A stretch of 64,000 nucleotides of DNA from Bacteroidales bacterium (lineage in GTDB: Bacteria; Bacteroidota; Bacteroidia; Bacteroidales; UBA1715): contig JAZRVS010000183.1 of assembly GCA_045599365.1 (NCBI GenBank), positions 8,052 to 72,051 on the forward strand. Direction: 5' to 3'. Below, one piece after another: positions 2,967-37,884 of the stretch. Made by a program: the position numbers and the translations under genes. The notes below the pieces were generated by a model. That model saw nothing but the letters and a program-made list of their open reading frames with translations. It made no database searches and was not told the origin of the DNA. How positions within the stretch are numbered: position 1 is the stretch's first letter; each line of letters begins with the position of its first letter.

Positions 2967-2977
2967 ATTCTATTATC

Positions 2978-4126
2978 ATGAAACGACTATTTTTTACATT
3001 TTGTTCTCTTTGTTTCGTACTGACGGTCTCAGCTCAACTTCGCACTGCTAACGAAGTTAAAACTACTTTTTCGCCCAAAAATTTAATGGCAAACAATATT
3101 GAATTCTCTTTGTCCAAAATTTATGCACAATTAGGCATTGAATTGCAAGATATTCAAGGAGACATTCAAAAAGTTTCATTCTCCAAAGACAATAATAATT
3201 GGTGTGAATGCATTTTCAACAATGAGAATCAAATCTCTCAAATAAAAAAAGACGACAAAGATATTTGTAAATTTGTCTATAACTCCAATTCAAAAGTTGA
3301 AGTAATTCAATTTGAAAACGAAATTATCGCAATTACATACGATAAAAAAGGTCGTGTCGCAAGTGAAGCAATATTGTATCCATATCAGTCAAAAAATACT
3401 CTAACTGACGGTAAGAAATCAATTACGGTAATGACTGACGATTATATTTTCACCAATTTGTGGCAATCGCAAAAAGCAACTGATTCTACAGCTCGCATTT
3501 ATCTATACGAAGTAAAGGGGCAAGGTTTATTACAAGAATGGGCTATAAAACAATTATTCTCTTATACTTACAAAGGGAATGGTTTAATGAAAACAAAAGT
3601 TGAAATAGCATCAAACCCATATCGTGACGCAATTTTTGATTTTTCATACAAAAAGAAAGTCCTTGATCAACAAGTAAAAACTTATACCAATAGCGATATG
3701 GTTGAGGGAACAACATACTTTTACGAAAATGGACAATTGGTAAAAGTAAACAAAGGATACTTTAGAGCAGCAAAAGGTAAAAATCCTCCGCTCATCAGTT
3801 CAGAAACGAACACAATGACGTACGATTCGCTTGGCAACATGACAACATATACAAGTACCGACGGATATAGACAAGACATTTGTACGTTACAATACGATAC
3901 AAATAAAAGAATTGTAAAAGTTCAAAAGCAACAAGAAAATGGAGAACAAATACCAATGTTCCAATGTGAATACAACGACCAAAACATTGTTGTGAAATCA
4001 ACACAAAGCAATGGACAACAAAAAATTTCATTCGATTATGATGAAAAAGGGAATTGGAATAAACAAACAATAGTTAAAAATAATGGTACAACGCAAGTTG
4101 TTGAACGTGTAATTACATACAAATAA
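2978..4126 (+). CDS. Secreted hypothetical protein with YD/RHS-like repeat signatures
   Basis: N-terminal signal peptide MKRLFFTFCSLCFVLTVSAQ. Recurring motifs of the type YD..G....(Y) (ITYDKKGRV, MTYDSLGNMTTYTSTDGY, FDYDEKGNW). Confidence 0.5.
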   Translation: MKRLFFTFCSLCFVLTVSAQLRTANEVKTTFSPKNLMANNIEFSLSKIYAQLGIELQDIQGDIQKVSFSKDNNNWCECIFNNENQISQIKKDDKDICKFVYNSNSKVEVIQFENEIIAITYDKKGRVASEAILYPYQSKNTLTDGKKSITVMTDDYIFTNLWQSQKATDSTARIYLYEVKGQGLLQEWAIKQLFSYTYKGNGLMKTKVEIASNPYRDAIFDFSYKKKVLDQQVKTYTNSDMVEGTTYFYENGQLVKVNKGYFRAAKGKNPPLISSETNTMTYDSLGNMTTYTSTDGYRQDICTLQYDTNKRIVKVQKQQENGEQIPMFQCEYNDQNIVVKSTQSNGQQKISFDYDEKGNWNKQTIVKNNGTTQVVERVITYK

Positions 4127-8294: not shown

Positions 8295-9593
8295 TTACAA
8301 CCGTCCAAAATCGAGGAATAGAGCGTAAAAGAAGATTGCGAATATGATAGCCATTCCTATTGCTTGAGCTTTCATCAAGAATTTTTCGCTTGGCTTTCTG
8401 CGAATTATCAACTCTACTATCAAAAATAGCAAGTGACCACCATCCAAACCTGGAATTGGCAGAATATTCATAAATGCCAAGATAACAGAGAACAAGGCCG
8501 CCAATGACCAAAAATTTCGCCAATTCCACGTTTCGTCGTACATTTTTCCCATTGAAACGAAACTACCTACTTGCGTTGAACCTTCTTTTGTGAACACCAA
8601 TTTGAATTGTTTCACGTAAAAGGTCAACGTATTTACTCCCATTTGGATTCCTTTGGGAATTGACTCAAGCAAAGAATACGTTTCTGTCATAATTTCAAAT
8701 TGATCGTATGCAGTTTTTGTCCATGCGCCAATTTTCCCTTCTTCAGAAATTGTAATTGGAATTTTTTCTTCAAATCCATGACGCAACACAGTCAATGTTA
8801 CCGCTTTACCTTTAAAATCTTTAACATTCAATGTAAATGACTGAAATAATTCGGTTGAAATAGAATCAATTGCCAAAATTTTATCCCCCACACGTAAATC
8901 AGAATTTGCTGCTGGCGTATTTGGCATAATGGAATCTATTACAAACGGAAAACCTTCCATCAAAAAGAATGAATTTGGATTTGCAATTATCTGTCGTCCA
9001 ATATCTTCTGGAACAGACAGTTCTACTTCGCGACCACTACGATTTACTGTAACAGTTTTTGCATCGTTCAACAAAATATTAGTTACTGCATCAGCCAAAG
9101 TTTTTGGTTCCTCGCCGTCAACGTGCAAGATTTTATCGCCATTTTGGAAACCCATATTCAATGCGGTTGAATCACAAAAAACACCATATTCTAAGTTTTT
9201 CAATGGCAAATACGAATGTCCCCAAGAATACGCCATAGCTGAATAGATAATGATAGCAGCAATAAAATTAAACAGCACACCACCAATAATAATCATAAAG
9301 CGCTGTCCCCACGGCTTTGAACGATATTCCCATGGTTGAGGCTCAGATTTCAATTGATCTGTGTCCATTGACTCGTCAACCATTCCCGCAATCTTACAAT
9401 AGCCGCCAAGTGGCAACCAACCAATTCCGTAAGTAGTTTCTCCCTTTTGAAATTTAAACAACGAAAACCATGGGTTAAAGAAAATATAAAACTTGTCAAC
9501 TCGCGTTTTCGACAATTTGGCAAACGTAAAATGTCCAAATTCGTGAACAAGAACTAAAAGAGTGAGTGTAAGAATAAGTTGTAATGCTTGCAT
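8295..9593 (-). CDS. rseP: RIP site-2 zinc metalloprotease RseP (M50 family)
   Basis: HEFGHF zinc motif near the N-terminus, PDZ-like central regions, and the NILPIPGLDGGH motif near the C-terminus. The probable start MQALQLIL is at 9593. Confidence 0.9.
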   Translation of the reverse strand: MQALQLILTLTLLVLVHEFGHFTFAKLSKTRVDKFYIFFNPWFSLFKFQKGETTYGIGWLPLGGYCKIAGMVDESMDTDQLKSEPQPWEYRSKPWGQRFMIIIGGVLFNFIAAIIIYSAMAYSWGHSYLPLKNLEYGVFCDSTALNMGFQNGDKILHVDGEEPKTLADAVTNILLNDAKTVTVNRSGREVELSVPEDIGRQIIANPNSFFLMEGFPFVIDSIMPNTPAANSDLRVGDKILAIDSISTELFQSFTLNVKDFKGKAVTLTVLRHGFEEKIPITISEEGKIGAWTKTAYDQFEIMTETYSLLESIPKGIQMGVNTLTFYVKQFKLVFTKEGSTQVGSFVSMGKMYDETWNWRNFWSLAALFSVILAFMNILPIPGLDGGHLLFLIVELIIRRKPSEKFLMKAQAIGMAIIFAIFFYALFLDFGRL

Positions 9594-9878
9594 TATGTCT
9601 ATAATATTGTTCTCTGCAAATGTACTGAAAAATCCATCATTTAGATAATACACTATTCAAAATGCTAATATTGAAGAGAACAGTTCGTACATTCAGAAAA
9701 CTGTCGCTGAATATAATAATGTTGTGCGTTAGATCTTCTCACCACCTTGTCTCCAAAAATTTCGTTGTTTATTTCGATTAGGATACGATGATGTCACATA
9801 ACTGATGAGGTTCAATGAAGACTGGAGTACCTTCTTGCATTGCTATATAAAGAATTATTATTTCATCGAACTATGCTA

Positions 9879-9942
9879 ATTTTAGTATGTTGAAATAACA
9901 TGAACTGATAAATAATTTTGTATACTAAAATATTCCATACTA
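9879..9942 (+). promoter_or_regulatory. Putative C-box-like operator set plus -7 box of the C-protein/REase operon
   Basis: A perfect 10-bp inverted repeat, ATTTTAGTAT (9879..9888) / ATACTAAAAT (9922..9931), flanks a TAATTTTG -7 box (9913..9920). A further half-site CATACTA (9936..9942) abuts the ATG. Confidence 0.35.
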
Positions 9943-10154
9943 TGAATAGCAAAAACATACTTACGATATTTGGTAATAATGTTCGAAAATACAGAAAAGA
10001 ACAACAATTGTCTCAAGAAAAATTGGCAGAATTTGCTGATGTACATAGGACATACATTGGTATGATTGAACGTGCTGAAAAGAATATTACACTATTGAAT
10101 ATGGAAAAAATAGCAAAAGCATTACAAATCGAACTAACAGAATTATTAAAATGA
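9942..10154 (+). CDS. XRE-family HTH protein, candidate R-M controller (C) protein
   Basis: 70 aa from the ATG at 9942. The HTH_3-like stretch is LSQEKLAEFADVHRTYIGMIERAEKNITL. Its stop overlaps the start of the next ORF (ATGA at 10151..10154). Confidence 0.7.
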   Translation: MNSKNILTIFGNNVRKYRKEQQLSQEKLAEFADVHRTYIGMIERAEKNITLLNMEKIAKALQIELTELLK

Positions 10155-10984
10155 ATAAGAAAGGTCTTTCAATACAACAAGCAGTCTCTAATTTTAAAAA
10201 TTTAATAGAAACATCCGTAAAAACAGGCGGAAGTGCTGCCAAAACAGCCATGATTCGTTCTTCAAAACCTATTATGAATATTCACGATGCTGTAAAATGG
10301 GAATTGATAAAAATGGGTATAAAAGAAGATTTAATTTATCCACATTTATTTGAAAGTAAACCAGAATTAAGGTTCGCAGGGTCATTGAAACAAAAAGATC
10401 AAGATATATGTGTCGTCCCAAATGATAGAAAACCTAAGAAAGAAATTTTAAAAGAAGGTTTGTTGCAAGGTGTGGAAGATGAATATGGGAAATTTTTTAC
10501 CCAGGAAACATTGACAATAAACGTTAGAAGTCAAACAAGTAGTCTTCAGAAAAACTTTGATACATTATATGAAAGGACTATCTCAGAAGCACAAAACTTA
10601 CATGATAGATGTCCACAAATGGTATTAGGAGAGGTATATATGGTTGCAATTCCAGAATATGACGATTCTATGTTTAAAAAAAAGAAATGCGTTTTTAAAG
10701 AAAACAAAGTAGGACTCGCCGAAAAATATATAAAATCATTTCATGCAATATCAAATAGAAAATCTATCAATAAAAATTTTTACCAATATGAAGCAACCTG
10801 TCTGCTTATCGTTGATTTTTCCCAAAAATCTCCGAAGATATACAATTCTACAAAAGAATTAATATCGGCAGGATTATTACCTAAAAACACAAAAGTCAAA
10901 TATGAGGGATTAGATTGGTCCTCTTTCACAAAAAGAATTTTAGATGCTTATAACCATAGATTTGGTTTAGATAAATTAAGATGA
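10151..10984 (+). CDS. Putative type II restriction endonuclease (assigned by context only)
   Basis: A 277-aa ORF translationally coupled to the C-protein and convergent with an N6-adenine methyltransferase. I could not find a clean PD-(D/E)xK motif by eye. Confidence 0.45.
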   Translation: MNKKGLSIQQAVSNFKNLIETSVKTGGSAAKTAMIRSSKPIMNIHDAVKWELIKMGIKEDLIYPHLFESKPELRFAGSLKQKDQDICVVPNDRKPKKEILKEGLLQGVEDEYGKFFTQETLTINVRSQTSSLQKNFDTLYERTISEAQNLHDRCPQMVLGEVYMVAIPEYDDSMFKKKKCVFKENKVGLAEKYIKSFHAISNRKSINKNFYQYEATCLLIVDFSQKSPKIYNSTKELISAGLLPKNTKVKYEGLDWSSFTKRILDAYNHRFGLDKLR

Positions 10985-12816
10985 TATTTTGCTTCTAAAA
11001 AAGCATCAATTTCTTTTTTGTCACTTATTTGATTTAATTTGAGTAATTCTTCGTTTGTGAAGTTTGGTATTGAAAATTTTTCAATAAAATTTTTTTGATA
11101 ACAAGGATATCCGCCTTCAATCATAACGCTGGTTTTTGTAATGTAATAATCCATAATAGAAGAATTGAGAATTTTTATTACAGCATCTATATTATCTTCT
11201 TTGGATATTGGATTTTGAATGTCAAATAAAGACATTGATTGATTTTTTTTGAAAAAAATTCCATATCCATTGGTAAAAAATGCTATTTCTTCTTCGGTTT
11301 TTAAGAATCTTGGCGACAGGCTAAATGTGGGATTTAGAATCTTTTTTCCAAAGCGATTTAATCCTTGCGTTCTTCCCCATACATAAAAAGGAGTGTATTT
11401 TACCTTTCCTTTGTCTCTTGATAGTAAGGAATCTTTCTCAGACAACAAGTATTCATAACATCTTGGGTATAATTTTTTAAATCTATTTTCATCTATAACT
11501 TTAGCAGAGTAGTTTGTAAACTGATATGGACAAATAATACGTCTTGTGTTTAATTCCAATTCTTTTTGTGTTTTAAAATCTGATATTTTGTACACAGGCC
11601 TTGTAATTTCTTTTTCTATTCTGAAAGTTCCTTTAACAGTAGTTTTGATGTAATAATTATCTTGTTCTTTCAAACCATCTACAAAAAAAACATCGTCTTT
11701 TAATGTTGCAATTCCAGCACATATGTCGAATAATTGACCTATAGGTGTTCCAATAGATTCTATATTTTTTATATTTTCTTGTTCATCTGATTTTAAGAGT
11801 CTCCATTTTTTCAAATTCAAATTAGAATAAAAATTCTTGGAAAAATTAATCCTACCTAAGAAAGATTCAGGATCTAATTCATTCTGAATTCTATCGTAAT
11901 ATAAAAAATCATTCTTTTTCTTGTTCATAAAAGTTAATGCTGTATAGGTTTGGACATCAAAAACTTTTTTACTACAAAAATCAATAATTTTACTTACGCA
12001 CTTTTCATTTTGAAAATATTTCCGAAGAGATTCTCCTGCCAAAGATGTAAAGTAATTATTAGGCGTAATATATCCTAACGCCCCCCCATTATTCAAAATT
12101 TTGTATCCTAATTCAAAAAATGCAAAATATAAATTGAATGTCCCTTTTTCAATGGATTTGTAGTTGTTTAAAAGGTAATCCCGATTATCATCGGACAAAT
12201 CTTGAAATTTAACATAAGGAGGATTTCCCATTACATTATCATATTTTTCTGTCCAATTATATCTAATACTATCTCTTGTAAATAAGTTAAAATCATCTTC
12301 ACATATTTTTTCTCCATTTTGCAATGCGTAGATTGAAATTAACAATTTTGCACGTCGTATATTATATTCCAATATATCCGTTCCGAAAATATTTTCTCGT
12401 ATAATATCTTTAATTTTTTTGTTATACGTTTTCTGATAATATCGAATAAGTCCCAACAAAAAAGCACCGCAACCACAACTAGGATCTATGTTTTTATCTT
12501 TTTCTTTTGGAGATAATTCGTTTATAATAAAATTAACTATATATGGAGGAGTGAAAAAAGCTCCGTTTGTTTTTCTATCATCTTGAGGTATCAATAATTC
12601 CAAACAATTTTCTAAATCATTAATAGTAGAACAATCAACAGATTTTATTTCCTCATATAATCTATTGTTCGTATTATAACTTTCAAAATATTCCTCTAGT
12701 ATAGTAGAGTCCTTGTATGTAAGGTTTTGGTTATTTAAAAAACATAAAAATAATATTTTTTCTATATCATCATGTTTATATTTTGAGACAATTGAATTAT
12801 ATAATGCTGTATTCAT
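10948..12816 (-). CDS. N6-adenine DNA methyltransferase, gamma class (Eco57I/TaqI-like) with a C-terminal target-recognition region
   Basis: GAFFTPPYIV, then motif I DPSCGCGAFLL, then motif IV GNPPYVKF, then a long C-terminal TRD. 622 aa. Confidence 0.85.
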   Translation of the reverse strand: MNTALYNSIVSKYKHDDIEKILFLCFLNNQNLTYKDSTILEEYFESYNTNNRLYEEIKSVDCSTINDLENCLELLIPQDDRKTNGAFFTPPYIVNFIINELSPKEKDKNIDPSCGCGAFLLGLIRYYQKTYNKKIKDIIRENIFGTDILEYNIRRAKLLISIYALQNGEKICEDDFNLFTRDSIRYNWTEKYDNVMGNPPYVKFQDLSDDNRDYLLNNYKSIEKGTFNLYFAFFELGYKILNNGGALGYITPNNYFTSLAGESLRKYFQNEKCVSKIIDFCSKKVFDVQTYTALTFMNKKKNDFLYYDRIQNELDPESFLGRINFSKNFYSNLNLKKWRLLKSDEQENIKNIESIGTPIGQLFDICAGIATLKDDVFFVDGLKEQDNYYIKTTVKGTFRIEKEITRPVYKISDFKTQKELELNTRRIICPYQFTNYSAKVIDENRFKKLYPRCYEYLLSEKDSLLSRDKGKVKYTPFYVWGRTQGLNRFGKKILNPTFSLSPRFLKTEEEIAFFTNGYGIFFKKNQSMSLFDIQNPISKEDNIDAVIKILNSSIMDYYITKTSVMIEGGYPCYQKNFIEKFSIPNFTNEELLKLNQISDKKEIDAFLEAKYHLNLSKPNLWL

Positions 12817-12818
12817 AA

Positions 12819-13115
12819 TTATTTCAATTTACTATATTCGACAACTGCTTCATGAGCAATGTTTAGTATTTCATTGGCATTATCTTCCTCTGCAACAATA
12901 GAATATACTTTTTCTGCCAACCAAAGGTTTATCAATTGAATTTCGTCCACTTCCAAGAGGATAGCAATCTTCTCTACTTGTTCTCTCTTTAATGGACGTT
13001 CTCCCCGCTCTATACGACTATACATTGGTGTATCTATGTCTAATAGTGCGGCTAACTTTTTCTGTGGAATTTTTTTATTTTCTCTTAGCGCTTTTATTGT
13101 CTCATAGAAATTCAT
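12819..13115 (-). CDS. XRE-family HTH regulator encoded immediately upstream of the methyltransferase
   Basis: Starting at 13115 gives MNFYETIKALRENKKIPQKKLAALLDIDTPMYSRIERGERPL (HTH_3-like). Its stop lies 2 nt before the MTase start. Confidence 0.7.
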   Translation of the reverse strand: MNFYETIKALRENKKIPQKKLAALLDIDTPMYSRIERGERPLKREQVEKIAILLEVDEIQLINLWLAEKVYSIVAEEDNANEILNIAHEAVVEYSKLK

Positions 13116-13117
13116 AG

Positions 13118-13154
13118 TTGTCAAAATTTGATTTGTCAGATTTTGACAAAAATA
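13118..13154 (-). promoter_or_regulatory. Putative autoregulatory operator overlapping the -7 box of the HTH-MTase operon
   Basis: TTTGTCA-GATTT-TGACAAA palindrome at 13132..13150, plus an extra TTGTCAAAAT half-site at 13118..13127. The minus-strand TATTTTTG -7 box at 13147..13154 overlaps the palindrome. The whole set lies 3-40 nt upstream of the HTH ATG. Confidence 0.45.
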
Positions 13155-13395
13155 CAATTATTTATGAATAAATCAAAAATTTTAAATAATTTCAAGGACT
13201 TTGCAACTCCAAATATAAAGCAACAATTGTTAGTTGGAATCTCCCGACAGGCATTTTCTGGTTGCGTTCACTCTTCTAAACAAATCAGATATTTACGAAA
13301 ATATAGAAGACGTACCTTCTACAAATTAAATACCTATATATGATAGGAGACTTGACTCCCACAGATAAAAGAAAACTCCTCTAAAGAAACTTATC

Positions 13396-13617
13396 CTAAC
13401 TTTCCAAGCCATTCATCAACTCATACAAATACGCAGGACTTTGCACATACAATTCAGCTTCTTCGTCTTGCAACATTGTCATTATGGGAGAGTTATAAAC
13501 ACGCTCCATAGCTTGCTCTGCACTACAATTTGTATCTTCCATCACATACTTTACCAACTCACTTATGACATAGTTTGTTAGATACGTTGCTATTTGATGA
13601 TGATTTGGCTGACTCAT
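13396..13617 (-). CDS. Small acidic helical protein (DUF3791-like), third gene of the coupled trio
   Basis: 73 aa. Its start overlaps the stop of the 162-aa ORF (4-nt overlap at 13614..13617). Confidence 0.55.
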   Translation of the reverse strand: MSQPNHHQIATYLTNYVISELVKYVMEDTNCSAEQAMERVYNSPIMTMLQDEEAELYVQSPAYLYELMNGLES

Positions 13618-14102
13618 AATATTTCAACAGCAATTTTTGTTAACGATTGTAATGCCCTTTCGGTACCAAAATAATATTGTTGGTCAAGATATTTATCTTG
13701 CAATAATTGAGATGCTTGTTCTGGTGTATAAATTCCCTCGCGATAATTTGTCAATTGTAATACGACGCCATCATCAGCAATTGGACCGATAACAATATCG
13801 TATTTATGAATAGAAACATTGTCCTTTTGACTACGATTAGAGTCCACAAACAAAAACCATTCTACACTCGCTTTTTTTGGAAAAACTTTAACATTTAAAT
13901 TAGAACATAAAGCTGATTCGTCAAATTCGTAACTGATGAGTGTTGCCGTTCCACCAAAAAGACGAGTCTTCTTGTTTGCCATACGAATTGCCGTATTCCT
14001 ATCTGATGTCAAATAAAAGCCAGCCCCAAAATCTTTGTGTTTCAAGCCTTTATTCAAATCTATTGTTTCAATATCAGTATTTGTACCATGATATAGTTTC
14101 AT
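13614..14102 (-). CDS. DUF3990-like protein of unknown function, possibly with an ADP-ribosyltransferase-like fold
   Basis: 162 aa. The N-terminus MKLYHGTNTDIETIDL...DFGAGFYLTSDRNTAIRMA is the signature I associate with DUF3990. It has 4-nt overlaps with both neighbours. Confidence 0.6.
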   Translation of the reverse strand: MKLYHGTNTDIETIDLNKGLKHKDFGAGFYLTSDRNTAIRMANKKTRLFGGTATLISYEFDESALCSNLNVKVFPKKASVEWFLFVDSNRSQKDNVSIHKYDIVIGPIADDGVVLQLTNYREGIYTPEQASQLLQDKYLDQQYYFGTERALQSLTKIAVEIL

Positions 14103-14314
14103 GCAAGCGTACCTCCATTTTTTTTACAAATAACAAGCAAATCGTCTATAGTTTCGTCCATTGATTGTAGATGTTCCACATCATAAAATTCAATTAAAAA
14201 TGCCAATCCCTTATGCTCTTTCAAATAACGATACGCAGACTGTCTCGACATATCATATCGTTGTCCAAATGCATATATGCAAGCCGTAAAATATGGTATT
14301 TCAAACTTACTCAT
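14099..14314 (-). CDS. Small DUF3791-like protein, first gene of the coupled trio
   Basis: 71 aa (MSKFEIPYFTACIYAFGQRYDMSRQSAYRYLKEHKGLAFLIEFYDVEH...). Its stop overlaps the start of the 162-aa ORF. Confidence 0.55.
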   Translation of the reverse strand: MSKFEIPYFTACIYAFGQRYDMSRQSAYRYLKEHKGLAFLIEFYDVEHLQSMDETIDDLLVICKKNGGTLA

Positions 14315-14383
14315 TTCTATATTGTTTCAATACCCCAAACATCTATTGCGAAAATAAACACAATTTTTGAATACAGTATAAAA

Positions 14384-15538
14384 TCACAATAAAGATTTTG
14401 CGTATTTCATTGATTCTTCGTGCGTTGCAACGTAATCTTCAAGTGTTGGTTCTGCTATGAACGAAATTGTTTGCATTGTTTTTTCAATCAAATCCGACAT
14501 ACCGAAGAAGGAAATTTTGTCCTGCAAAAATGCTGCAACAGCAACTTCATTCGCCGCATTCATAATACAAGGCATATTTCCGCCAGTTTCGATTGCCGAA
14601 AGTGCAATATTTAAATTTCTAAATAATGTACGGTTCGGTTGTTCAAATGTCAAGTCCTTGTATTCAAACAAATTAACACGTGGGAAATCTGCTTTAAGGC
14701 GGTCTGGATAACTAAATGCGTATTGAATTGGAATTCGCATATCTGGCATTCCAAGCTGTGCTTTGATAGAACCATCTTCGAACTGAACAGCCGAGTGAAC
14801 GATTGATTGCGGATGCACCAAAACCTCAATATCTTTTGGTGCAACATTGAACAACCATTTGGCCTCAATCACTTCCAAACCTTTGTTCATAAGCGATGCC
14901 GAATCTATTGTAACTTTTGCGCCCATGCTCCAGTTTGGATGCTTCAAAGCCTGCGCTTTTGTTACCGTTGCTAATTGTTCTTTGGTAAAACCACGGAATG
15001 GTCCGCCAGAAGCAGTCAATAATATTTTTTCGGGTTTGTTGCCACACTGTAATTCTCCGTGTAAGCATTGAAAAATTGCCGAATGTTCTGAGTCAACGGG
15101 AACGATGCCTGATTTTGGATGCTCTTTCAAAAGTTTGTTTACCAATTGTCCTGCAACGACAAGAACTTCTTTGTTTGCCAATGCAATAATTTTGTCGTGT
15201 TCAATAGCATTGATTACAGGCGCAAGACCAGCATAGCCGACTAAAGCCCCCAAAACCATATCAACCGACTCCATTTCAACCACATCGTTCAACGATTCGT
15301 TACCAGTGAACACTTTTATCATGTATTTTTCCAAAGCCTTCGACACATATTCGTACTTGTCGGGATTGGAAATGACAACCACATTTGGATTGAATTTGAT
15401 AGCTTGTTCAATCAATAAATCTGCATTGTTGTGCGCAGTTAAAACTTCAACGGAAAATTCATTTGGATGACGTGAAATCACATCTAACGCTTGTGTTCCA
15501 ATGGAACCCGTTGAACCTAAAAGAGCTATTCGTTTCAT
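14384..15538 (-). CDS. dxr: 1-deoxy-D-xylulose 5-phosphate reductoisomerase
   Basis: MKRIALLGSTGSIGTQALDV NADPH-binding motif, LANKE, VDSEHSA(I)FQC and HPNWSMG motifs. The probable start is at 15538. Confidence 0.95.
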   Translation of the reverse strand: MKRIALLGSTGSIGTQALDVISRHPNEFSVEVLTAHNNADLLIEQAIKFNPNVVVISNPDKYEYVSKALEKYMIKVFTGNESLNDVVEMESVDMVLGALVGYAGLAPVINAIEHDKIIALANKEVLVVAGQLVNKLLKEHPKSGIVPVDSEHSAIFQCLHGELQCGNKPEKILLTASGGPFRGFTKEQLATVTKAQALKHPNWSMGAKVTIDSASLMNKGLEVIEAKWLFNVAPKDIEVLVHPQSIVHSAVQFEDGSIKAQLGMPDMRIPIQYAFSYPDRLKADFPRVNLFEYKDLTFEQPNRTLFRNLNIALSAIETGGNMPCIMNAANEVAVAAFLQDKISFFGMSDLIEKTMQTISFIAEPTLEDYVATHEESMKYAKSLL

Positions 15539-15573
15539 AATGTTCTTTGATAAATCACGCAAAGATAATCATT

Positions 15574-32823: not shown

Positions 32824-32897
32824 TCCCAAATAGCTCAGTTGGTTAGAGCATCTGACTGTTAATCAGAGGGTCACTGGTTCAAGTCCAGTTTTGGGAG
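32824..32897 (+). tRNA. tRNA-Asn (GTT)
   Basis: Acceptor stem TCCCAAA/TTTGGGA, D-arm GCTCAGTTGGTTAGAGC, anticodon loop CTGTTAA, T-arm ACTGGTTCAAGTCCAGT. CCA is not encoded. Confidence 0.9.
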
Positions 32898-32900
32898 CAA

Positions 32901-34811: not shown

Positions 34812-34813
34812 AG

Positions 34814-34897
34814 TACCAAAGGCGGGAATCGAACCCGCACGATATTGCTATCACTGGATTTTGAGTCCAGCGCGTCTACCAATTCCGCCACTTTGGC
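34814..34897 (-). tRNA. tRNA-Leu (CAA)
   Basis: The reverse complement reads GCCAAAGTGGCGGAATTGGTAGACGC...CTGGACTCAAAATCCAG...long variable arm...GCGGGTTCGATTCCCGCCTTTGGTA. The anticodon loop is CTCAAAA. Confidence 0.9.
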
Positions 34898-37809: not shown

Positions 37810-37813
37810 AAAG

Positions 37814-37884
37814 TTGTCGTACAAGGATTCGAACCTCGACTAACTGGACCAAAACCAGTTGTGCTGCCATTACACCATACGACA
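37814..37884 (-). tRNA. tRNA-Gln (TTG)
   Basis: The reverse complement reads TGTCGTATGGTGTAATGGCAGCAC..ACTGGTTTTGGTCCAGT..GAGGTTCGAATCCTTGTACGACAA. The anticodon loop is TTTTGGT. Confidence 0.85.

Follow-up and report, generated by a model that had tools for sequence, protein, structure and literature searches.

A DUF3791–DUF3990 gene cassette in a Bacteroidales genome belongs to a widespread candidate defense family

Introduction

Some bacterial toxin–antitoxin (TA) modules use ADP-ribosyltransferases (ARTs) as toxins. DarTG is a TA module with an ART toxin of the H-Y-E clade and a proven role against phages. Antitoxins of type II modules are usually built with an N-terminal Xre helix-turn-helix (HTH) domain, and three-component modules, such as omega-epsilon-zeta, paaR-paaA-parE, and the toxin-antitoxin-chaperone systems, place in one operon a toxin and two small accessory proteins, of which one is regulatory.

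The protein domain DUF3990 has been described in several settings. Pfam assigns it to the ART clan (PMC7955679), and it forms the C-terminal toxin tip of type VI secretion system (T6SS) Rhs effectors, including Serratia Rhs5 and Enterobacter RhsA (PMC4524185; PMC10763514). An ART-fold family of the H-Y-E clade, Tox-ART-HYD2, was published in 2012 with the residue signature "H, D, GFY, W, R" (PMC3482391). A bioinformatic "guilt-by-embedding" search, which cites PrrC as the prime example of an embedded system, yielded 145 phage-defense candidates including PDC-M13 (Payne et al., bioRxiv 10.1101/2024.01.29.577857), and PDC-M13 ranked among the most abundant systems counted in 6,530 rumen genomes, where it occurred 3,324 times (PMC13356809). 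We found no papers testing PDC-M13 or PDC-M10, a further candidate treated below, and no experimental study of the family in the literature, which agrees with an earlier remark, made from the DNA letters, that no function had been defined by experiment.

Here, we analyze a three-gene cassette in a 64,000-nucleotide stretch of a Bacteroidales genome (hereafter, the window) and compare it with related loci and with the described systems.

Results

The cassette lies on the minus strand and consists of gene A (14099..14314), encoding a 71-aa DUF3791 protein and transcribed first; gene B (13614..14102), encoding a 162-aa DUF3990 protein that begins MKLYHGTN...DFGAGFYLTSDRNTA; and gene C (13396..13617), encoding a 73-aa acidic four-helix protein without a Pfam family. 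The three reading frames, the start of B, and the ATGA overlaps joining the genes are as the preliminary description gave them: the stop of A and the start of B share 14099..14102, and the stop of B and the start of C share 13614..13617, both on the minus strand. For comparison, we drew 80 related loci from species genomes of GTDB, in which DUF3990 loci number at least 575. The A–B junction is ATGA in 71 of 81 related cassettes and the B–C junction in 73 of 81, a further 3 having TTGA or GTGA. In 79 of the 80 loci, B is preceded upstream by a DUF3791 homologue, and a C homologue is present in all 80, directly downstream on the same strand except in one locus (L061), where it lies upstream. The recurrence of this order argues that the A-B-C arrangement is not due to chance. 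From the overlaps, we infer that the trio is a genuine operon; together with the conserved order, they indicate the co-transcription expected of type II TA genes. A 69-nt spacer (14315..14383, minus strand) separates the stop of dxr from the start of A and would be the sole space for a cassette promoter, unless transcription reads through from dxr instead. A consensus scan of the spacer found no sigma-70-like site and no terminator-like hairpin, Bacteroidota-type promoters being outside the consensus used.

The Pfam assignments proposed for A and B proved correct. A matched DUF3791 (PF12668; E 4.3e-20) with 71.9 bits against a cut-off of 25, over model positions 2–60 of 60, and B matched DUF3990 (PF13151; E 1.4e-42) with 145.4 bits against a cut-off of 32.2, its residues 1–155 covering model positions 1–151 of 152. 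The window C had no Pfam match, and no NCBIfam model matched any of the three proteins. In PADLOC, A matched PDC-M13A (PDLC04435; 2.2e-25), B matched PDC-M13B (PDLC04438; 6.4e-39), and C matched PDC-M13C (PDLC04444; 5.2e-15), so that the three contiguous, overlapping genes have the gene content by which PDC-M13 is called; B also matched PDC-M10A. The cassette had been put forward as a candidate uncharacterized module, which needs correcting in that the trio is already a PADLOC candidate, and the domain of B fits the Tox-ART-HYD2 signature of 2012 (PMC3482391).

Among the relatives, we found fusions of A and C in either order, A–C and C–A, each beside a separate B, and the A–C fusion protein corresponds to PDC-M10B (E 8.6e-69). 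On the strength of these A–C fusions, the three-gene PDC-M13 and the two-gene PDC-M10, which have separate entries in PADLOC, appear to be a single system in a split and a fused form. B and C are fused in 8 of the 11 long DUF3990 cluster representatives, with a separate A upstream. All three types of fusion imply a physical association of the parts, and covalent B–C fusions would be unusual if C were a simple stoichiometric antitoxin. The identity of the either-order A/C fusions with PDC-M10, the recurrence of B–C fusions, and an Xre HTH on A in at least 10 of the 80 loci are the new observations of this work.

The preliminary description had likened B to ARTs of the H-Y-E clade, and comparisons of structure and of profiles agree with this. 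The AlphaFold2 (AF2) model of B (pLDDT 86.5, pTM 0.81) had its best PDB matches with TM 0.47–0.52 in the ParT and RES toxins (Foldseek probability 0.99), and further PDB matches included PARP1/2/3, a PE-like toxin, and the A subunits of typhoid and pertussis toxins (overall TM 0.42–0.52). The top PDB match was a cyanophage pre-ejectosome protein, and in BFVD the model matched ART-PolyVal-like phage proteins (E about 1e-4) as well as polyvalent and MuF-fusion proteins. The predicted fold of B is, then, the split sheet of the ARTs, with a similarity that is moderate (TM about 0.5) and not high. In sequence, the ART-PolyVal model (PF18760) matched B with 22.3 bits, under the gathering cut-off of 31.2 and across residues 1–43 only, and it matched 57 of 101 diverse DUF3990 homologues; ART-PolyVal is a family related to B, of which B is not a member. 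Profiles built from close and from diverse B homologues gave only chance matches to solved structures in the PDB. The RES profile matched neither B nor the 101 homologues at E <= 0.05, and the conserved residues differ from the R-E-S signature; the DarT Pfam profile likewise did not match B. In PHROGs, the only match was a weak one, of the N terminus of B to phrog_4700, a family of unknown function. At 50% identity, the DUF3990 sequences fall into more than 2,000 clusters.

The viral resemblances bring up the reading that B derives from a phage or conjugative element and is an offensive effector, modifying proteins of the host or of rival elements as proposed for ART-PolyVal, in place of a suicide toxin of the host. 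The best viral fold matches and the cyanophage protein point this way, as do the 79 IMG/VR contigs that carry DUF3990. Against it, B stays under the ART-PolyVal threshold, the window protein stands alone with 162 aa, has two small partners dedicated to it, and has no phage genes near it, and the viral contigs usually hold the whole trio (58 of 79), in the manner of cargo. We regard this reading as very improbable.

Residue conservation, computed over the 101 diverse homologues, locates a putative NAD site. The residues conserved in at least 90% of them are H5, G6, D24, F25, G26, G28, F29, Y30, A38, F74, W82, F85, N89, R90, D102, G106, P107, A109, D111, and Q142, with R90 being invariant. The H-G-[ST] motif falls on a predicted strand at 2–7 (H5 and G6 each in 98 of 101, with S or T next in 96), and the aromatic-Tyr motif falls on a predicted strand at 29–32 (F29 and Y30 each in 99, with T32 being T or S in 92). 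The anticipated H/Y/E triad was borne out for its first two members but not for the third: the Glu expected at the start of strand 5 is missing, no Glu being conserved among the 101 homologues (E59 in 59%, E81 in 71%), and the conserved acidic residues, D24, D102, and D111, are all Asp, which makes the motif H-Y-D-like and not H-Y-E. D102, present in 98 of 101 and preceding a predicted strand at 103–107, may substitute for the catalytic Glu, as an Asp does in H-Y-D families, an equivalence read only from predicted secondary structure. B also displays the Tox-ART-HYD2 pattern, with H5, D24, G28-F29-Y30, W82, and R90, and the name of that H-Y-E-clade family implies an Asp as its third residue. 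Going by this shared signature, DUF3990 may be the same family as Tox-ART-HYD2. Because the predicted catalytic His is residue 5, B leaves no room for a signal or trafficking domain and would act inside the producing cell.

B could instead be a nontoxic regulatory or repair enzyme of the ART superfamily, such as a Tpt1-like phosphotransferase, a reversible ADP-ribosylating enzyme, or an NAD sensor, with A and C as its subunits or substrates. The ART clan does hold the nontoxic Tpt1 (PTS_2-RNA) and DUF952 (PMC7955679), and Geobacillus phage E3 carries B alone, so B is not necessarily lethal on its own. C is highly conserved, and A has an invariant His together with a Cys and a GG invariant within its subfamily, a pattern unusual for a mere antitoxin. 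The same domain, however, serves as a toxin tip of Rhs proteins, TA toxins are the nearest structural neighbors of B, and the distribution is patchy and multicopy, on plasmids and phages and in unrelated genomic contexts. Taken together, a nontoxic function seems unlikely.

The two small partners had been described as acidic and helical. C, with a pI of 4.16 and a net charge of about –9, fits this description very well, its AF2 model consisting of four helices (pLDDT 93.5), and the acidity is only mild for A (pI 5.5). Foldseek found no fold relatives of C in the PDB (best E 1.9), and among 922 C homologues, none has its own Pfam domain, while PF13151 is carried by one of the matches listed. 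Among close loci, the median identity is 80% for C and 72% for B, and C, being as conserved as B, does not resemble a fast-evolving sensor. Only one motif of A, [YF]-[DE]-x-x-H (H48), is retained in every distant member. The A homologues of at least 10 of the 80 related loci carry an N-terminal Xre domain (HTH_3; HTH E 7e-14); the window A, unlike these relatives, has no DNA-binding domain. The N-terminal 76 aa of the long A proteins were also considered as a hidden A- or C-like domain, which hhalign excluded, the segment being the Xre HTH. A and C do not appear to be diverged paralogues, either, with no BLASTP match and an hhalign probability of 2.7%.

In the window, the cassette occupies part of a 4.7-kb stretch (9654..14383) between the housekeeping genes rseP (8295..9653) and dxr (14384..15562), adjoining a complete type II restriction–modification (R-M) system. 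The earlier reading of this stretch as an insertion beside an R-M system is accurate as a description; the direct and inverted repeats that might mark an insertion were only short and at chance level around the cassette. The R-M adjacency is not conserved. None of the window neighbors, namely rseP, the restriction endonuclease, the methyltransferase, the HTH gene, dxr, the HD protein, and AsmA, had a tblastn match in the 80 related loci, so both the R-M adjacency and the dxr–rseP site are specific to this genome. The trio has a GC content of 34.6%, equal to the window mean, and the R-M block one of 28.4%, a difference suggesting that the two were acquired separately. The cassette is mobile in its own right, and the R-M system next to it is no conserved partner.

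These comparisons bear on a PrrC-style role, in which the R-M enzymes would keep the cassette silent until a phage antirestriction factor disables them and the cassette fires. PrrC is the model embedded system of the PADLOC candidate paper, and a cassette on a Moraxella osloensis plasmid (L082) is embedded in a type I R-M operon, where it separates hsdM from hsdS, with overlaps of 4 nt. Four further M. osloensis plasmids likewise have the match next to an annotated hsdM, and the window cassette directly adjoins a complete type II system. Very few of the loci have any R-M neighbor, though, and the window R-M genes recur in 0 of 80; the GC contents differ, and the cassette brings partners of its own. 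A guard of the adjacent R-M system is, therefore, quite improbable.

More generally, the immediate neighbors in the 80 loci are heterogeneous and mostly housekeeping genes, and matches to defense models form a small minority by a rough reading of a summary that gives the top families only. The suspected enrichment of homologues in defense islands is, consequently, weak in this sample. Copies are found on mobile DNA: 84 plasmid records carry DUF3990, some next to rep or parA, with the trio adjoining a replication gene on small Clostridium botulinum plasmids and parA on a Bacteroides uniformis plasmid. Two of the related loci (L036 and L071) hold two cassette copies each, about 4 kb apart.

The same biochemistry could serve purely for addiction, stabilizing mobile DNA through postsegregational killing and having no part in phage defense. 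The plasmid records, among them the trios next to replication and partition genes, agree with such a role, as does the scatter of chromosomal copies among housekeeping genes with few defense neighbors. Most chromosomal copies, that of the window included, have no recognizable mobility genes adjoining them, however, and the module embedded in the Moraxella type I R-M operon is of the kind on which PADLOC based its selection (10.1101/2024.01.29.577857). Addiction and defense are, moreover, not mutually exclusive. We consider an exclusively stabilizing module doubtful, while giving it some weight.

Discussion

The window copy is an ordinary member of its family, with no new biology of its own, and the cassette belongs to a widespread family that is already known and does not represent a novel class of system, although it lends itself well to experimental work. 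As to function, we lean, by a modest degree, toward a translationally coupled, self-contained, and horizontally mobile module of the TA or abortive-infection type, with a predicted NAD-using ART toxin at its center.

Under this TA-like or abortive-infection model, B would work in the cytoplasm as an H-Y-E-clade enzyme with the ART fold, in which an Asp probably takes the position of the Glu; the favored candidate is D102, which heads the strand corresponding to beta-5. NAD+ would be bound probably by the HG[ST] and GFY-x-T strands, and B would either transfer ADP-ribose to an essential target or destroy NAD+, as ParT and RES do, and growth would stop. A and C may jointly form the partner that silences B: A as a regulator or antitoxin-type component, many of its relatives having the Xre DNA-binding domain, and C as an acidic helical module that would bind B as a neutralizer, sensor, or adaptor. 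B might be released when the element is lost, when host synthesis is shut off, or in response to a phage product, and its release would lead to postsegregational killing or abortive infection. The fusions make parts of this scheme into explicit hypotheses, namely, that A and C act as one unit, that C touches B, that A controls transcription, and that a single system underlies PDC-M10 and PDC-M13.

Should this model be correct, an NAD-dependent suicide or addiction module under the unusual control of two partners would be widespread in gut Bacteroidales, and an H-Y-D ART would join DarT, ParT, and RES on the short list of ART toxins of TA and defense systems. A more far-reaching possibility, which we put forward tentatively, is that PDC-M13/M10 is a distinct three-module ART immune or TA system, in which C would be an autoinhibitory sensor that can be fused to B, like the antitoxin domain of CapRel-type fused modules; A, with its invariant His, a DNA-binding or regulatory adaptor; and B an H-Y-D enzyme with a target new for bacterial ARTs. 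As abundant as it is in Bacteroidales of the gut and rumen, such a system would be one of the main uncharacterized defense systems of the gut microbiome.

Among described systems, PDC-M13/PDC-M10 is the closest, the window trio being the same in gene content and order, a typical member in which nothing is structurally different. Tox-ART-HYD2 and the DUF3990 tips of Rhs proteins share with B the predicted ART fold and the "H, D, GFY, W, R" residues, and the Rhs tips carry its Pfam domain; the phyletic range of Tox-ART-HYD2, covering Bacteroidota, Firmicutes, and some eukaryotes, is also like that of DUF3990. Those domains are, however, the C-terminal parts of secreted polymorphic toxins aimed at other cells, whereas B stands alone, has no export signal, and is paired with DUF3791 and C. 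ART-PolyVal resembles B in profile over the H...GFY N-terminal part (residues 1–43) and accounts for its best annotated viral fold matches, but it typically occurs as one domain within very large injected proteins, whereas B stands alone and has two partners.

The ParT and RES toxins, the nearest solved structures, are small cytoplasmic ART-fold proteins that ADP-ribosylate Prs or degrade NAD+, and the antitoxin of the Xre-RES/ParST modules bears an Xre HTH, as does the long form of A in the relatives. B differs from these toxins in having no Pfam RES match and an H...GFY...D motif in place of R-E-S, and the cassette differs from their modules in having three components and not two, with DUF3791 and C lacking RES or ParS-type matches. 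By analogy, the cassette may work like ParST/Xre-RES, of which it is not a member. DarTG is set apart by the missing DarT Pfam match of B, by the absence of a macrodomain antitoxin from the cassette, and by the third catalytic residue. With the three-component TA modules, finally, the cassette shares its logic but none of its families, and the order here is partner-toxin-partner.

Anatomy and Family Membership of the Cassette

We confirmed the three minus-strand reading frames and their overlaps exactly as claimed in the preliminary description. Gene A (14314..14099; 71 aa) encodes a DUF3791 protein (PF12668, E = 4.3e-20) and gene B (14102..13614; 162 aa) a DUF3990 protein (PF13151, E = 1.4e-42), as had been recognized, while gene C (13617..13396; 73 aa), also on the minus strand, has no Pfam family. 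In the sequence, ATGA stop/start overlaps join A to B (14102–14099) and B to C (13617–13614). NCBIfam holds no model for A, B or C, and all three proteins match components of PDC-M13, a three-gene phage-defense candidate of PADLOC (2.2e-25, 6.4e-39 and 5.2e-15, respectively). All three are genuine genes.

Relatives of B number 2,715 in 90%-identity clusters and 2,141 in 50%-identity clusters (E ≤ 1e-3), and those of C 922. At least 575 related loci exist, and we sampled 80 from GTDB species genomes. The expected co-occurrence was borne out, with a DUF3791 homolog upstream of B in 79 of the 80 and C present in every one. In every locus but one, C follows B directly and on B's strand; in L061, from Segatella copri, its homolog is upstream. 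Among 81 related cassettes, the ATGA overlap was found at the A–B junction in 71 and at the B–C junction in 73.

The trio had been presented as uncharacterized, but PADLOC already lists the family as PDC-M13, and the window copy is a typical member of it. PDC candidates are genes embedded in BREX, DISARM and type I restriction-modification (R-M) operons, and 145 were released without testing (Payne et al., bioRxiv 10.1101/2024.01.29.577857). In rumen genomes, PDC-M13 is among the most abundant systems, with 3,324 occurrences that were counted only (PMC13356809). Our literature search found such counts and no experimental study of DUF3990, DUF3791, PDC-M13 or PDC-M10, in agreement with the earlier statement that no experimentally defined function is known for the trio.

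The Insertion Site and the R-M Neighbor

Between rseP and dxr, the cassette shares a stretch of 4.7 kb (9654..14383) with a complete type II R-M system. Its control (C) protein (9942..10154, plus strand; 70 aa; PADLOC Control_protein, 8.6e-25), an ORF below the ORF-list cutoff, ends in a TGA overlapping the ATG of the restriction endonuclease (10151..10984; REase_II, 2.9e-75), and the 3′ ends of the endonuclease and the convergent methyltransferase (10948..12816, minus strand) overlap by 37 nt. A second Xre HTH protein (12819..13157, minus strand) abuts the methyltransferase start directly upstream; its true start is likely the ATG at 13115, giving 98 aa (12819..13115). This HTH protein may serve either the R-M system or the neighboring trio, in relatives of which an Xre HTH is fused to DUF3791. 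Just upstream of it, a palindrome with 14-nt arms (13118–13131 and 13136–13149; 93% complementary, 4 nt apart) resembles an operator. We found no repeats flanking the stretch. Of the Rfam families, only three tRNAs scored above threshold in the window: tRNA-Asn(gtt) at 32824–32898, tRNA-Leu(caa) at 34813–34897 and tRNA-Gln(ttg) at 37813–37884.

The GC content of the R-M block is 28.4%, against 34.6% for the trio, which equals the window mean; this difference suggests that the two were acquired separately at one rseP–dxr hotspot. The position beside an R-M system stands, but the link is not conserved, as none of the 80 related loci shared the window's cassette neighbors. The 143 immediate neighbors of related cassettes were mostly unrelated housekeeping genes, with any Pfam family seen at most three times, and those matching defense models (MADS, DrmD, type III and IIG R-M, AbiEi and PDC-S01) were a small minority; the enrichment beside defense genes that had been put forward for checking appears weak in this sample. 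Given these heterogeneous neighbors, the cassette is an autonomously moving unit of 0.9 kb, and its R-M neighbor in the window is incidental. This weighs against the rival reading of the cassette as an R-M guard, which a Moraxella osloensis plasmid (L082, NZ_CP069435.1; 3454–6602) would favor: there, a type I R-M operon hosts the module between hsdM and hsdS in the permuted order B-C-A with 4-nt overlaps, and four other M. osloensis plasmids likewise have hsdM next to the match.

Plasmids and Viruses

The cassette is present in 84 plasmid records, adjoining the rep gene in Clostridium botulinum pCLI and parA in a Bacteroides uniformis plasmid. On the latter (L083; 4518–5087 and 6129–6917), a C-A fusion and B are followed by an ORF6N-domain gene and, ~1.2 kb further downstream, an HTH/Fic pair, forming a cluster of toxin–antitoxin-like cargo beside parA. 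Such settings would suit the rival reading of a module serving addiction only, against which its embedding in the Moraxella type I R-M operon speaks. Two loci, L036 (2167–2646, 5962–6480) and L071 (1902–2402, 6001–6474), carry two complete cassettes each, ~4 kb apart; the genomes are Hallella absiana and a Muribaculaceae MAG.

The family was also found on 79 IMG/VR contigs, with all three parts in 58. In Geobacillus virus E3 (L086), gp30 (2968–3576; 202 aa) is a DUF3990 protein, and no DUF3791 or C-like gene was found in its neighborhood, suggesting that B can exist without partners in a phage. The 79 viral contigs would fit a rival role as a phage offensive effector, whereas the complete trios on most of them speak for a cargo module.

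Partner Proteins and Domain Fusions

A and C show no detectable relationship. C is very acidic (pI 4.16) and is modeled as four helices (pLDDT 93.5), with no structural relative in the PDB. Median identities to the window proteins in close loci were 77% for A, 72% for B and 80% for C; C is conserved on a par with B. In distant members of A, the sole universal motif is [YF]-[DE]-x-x-H (H48); C63 and G67–G68 are invariant within the window's subfamily only.

Among the new results, the domain fusions proved the most informative. A C-A fusion of 147 aa beside a separate B occurs in the B. uniformis plasmid and two human-fecal "Bacteriophage sp." contigs. The reverse A-C fusion (146 aa), again beside a separate B, matches PADLOC PDC-M10B at 8.6e-69, which makes PDC-M10 the two-gene form of PDC-M13. 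Among DUF3990 cluster representatives, 11 reach at least 200 aa, and 8 of these are B-C fusions; a separate gene for DUF3791 still lies upstream wherever the context could be seen. At the N terminus of A, an Xre HTH_3 domain (E down to 7e-14) is present in at least 10 of the 80 loci; this is the usual build of type II antitoxins, in which a DNA-binding domain is joined to a toxin-binding one.

Fold of B and Proposed Mechanism

Pfam places DUF3990 in its ADP-ribosyltransferase (ART) clan (PMC7955679). B itself matches the ART-PolyVal HMM below threshold (22.3 bits against a cutoff of 31.2; residues 1–43), while 57 of 101 diverse homologs match it (E ≤ 0.05); profile searches with B never reached a solved structure at the sequence level. 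We modeled B with AlphaFold2 from 34 homologs (pLDDT 86.5, pTM 0.81). The top PDB match by E-value was a cyanophage pre-ejectosome protein, and the best by TM-score were ParT (probability 0.99, TM 0.49–0.50) and an Xre-RES toxin (TM 0.47–0.52), followed by PARP1/2/3, a PE-like toxin and the typhoid and pertussis toxin A subunits. A 202-aa protein, probably the phage E3 member of DUF3990, led the matches to predicted viral structures (TM 0.76); next came ART-PolyVal-like proteins, polyvalent proteins and a rifampin ART. Together, these matches support the proposed ART fold, known beforehand, at moderate structural similarity of the predicted model. A non-toxic ART function would accord with the high conservation of C and the lone B of phage E3; against it stand the matches to ParT and the RES toxin and the use of DUF3990 in Serratia and Enterobacter, where it forms the C-terminal toxin tip of T6SS Rhs effectors (PMC4524185, PMC10763514).

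A three-part toxin–antitoxin-like module is the best-supported model for what the analysis showed of anatomy and family membership, of fold and conservation, and of fusions and mobility. B would be a cytoplasmic, NAD-using ART-fold toxin, its putative catalytic His at residue 5 leaving no export signal, and may ADP-ribosylate a target or deplete NAD+, by analogy with ParT and RES toxins. A and C would jointly restrain it, A acting as a regulator or an antitoxin-type component and C binding B, with addiction or abortive infection as the outcome. The NAD chemistry, the toxicity, the neutralizing partner, the trigger and any defense role are inferred parts of the model. The toxin-module interpretation was broadly right, with its H-Y-E motif, novelty and R-M link corrected, and the window cassette is a well-defined experimental target, sharpened by the fusion evidence.

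Conserved Residues and Relation to Known Toxins

We aligned 101 full-length homologs, 31–58% identical to the window's B. Conserved in at least 90% were H5, G6, D24, F25, G26, G28, F29, Y30, A38, F74, W82, F85, N89, R90, D102, G106, P107, A109, D111 and Q142, with R90 invariant. H5 and Y30 of the anticipated triad hold and, on predicted strands 2–7 and 29–32, fit the first two ART motifs, but no conserved Glu was found in the alignment (E59 59%, E81 71%). D102 directly precedes predicted strand 103–107, the catalytic Glu site of H-Y-E enzymes, so that the motif of B appears H-Y-D-like, not H-Y-E. HG[ST]...GFY-x-T and [DE]-hydrophobic(3)-G-x-P presumably resemble the patterns of diphtheria toxin and exotoxin A, a lead only. 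The prediction of an invariant Glu fails, in a manner already known for H-Y-D toxin ARTs. Among these, the polymorphic-toxin family Tox-ART-HYD2 of Bacteroidota, Firmicutes and some eukaryotes has the signature "H, D, GFY, W, R" (Zhang et al. 2012, PMC3482391). It is the DUF3990 pattern H5, D24, GFY28–30, W82 and R90 of B, and from this shared signature we infer that DUF3990 and Tox-ART-HYD2 are one family.
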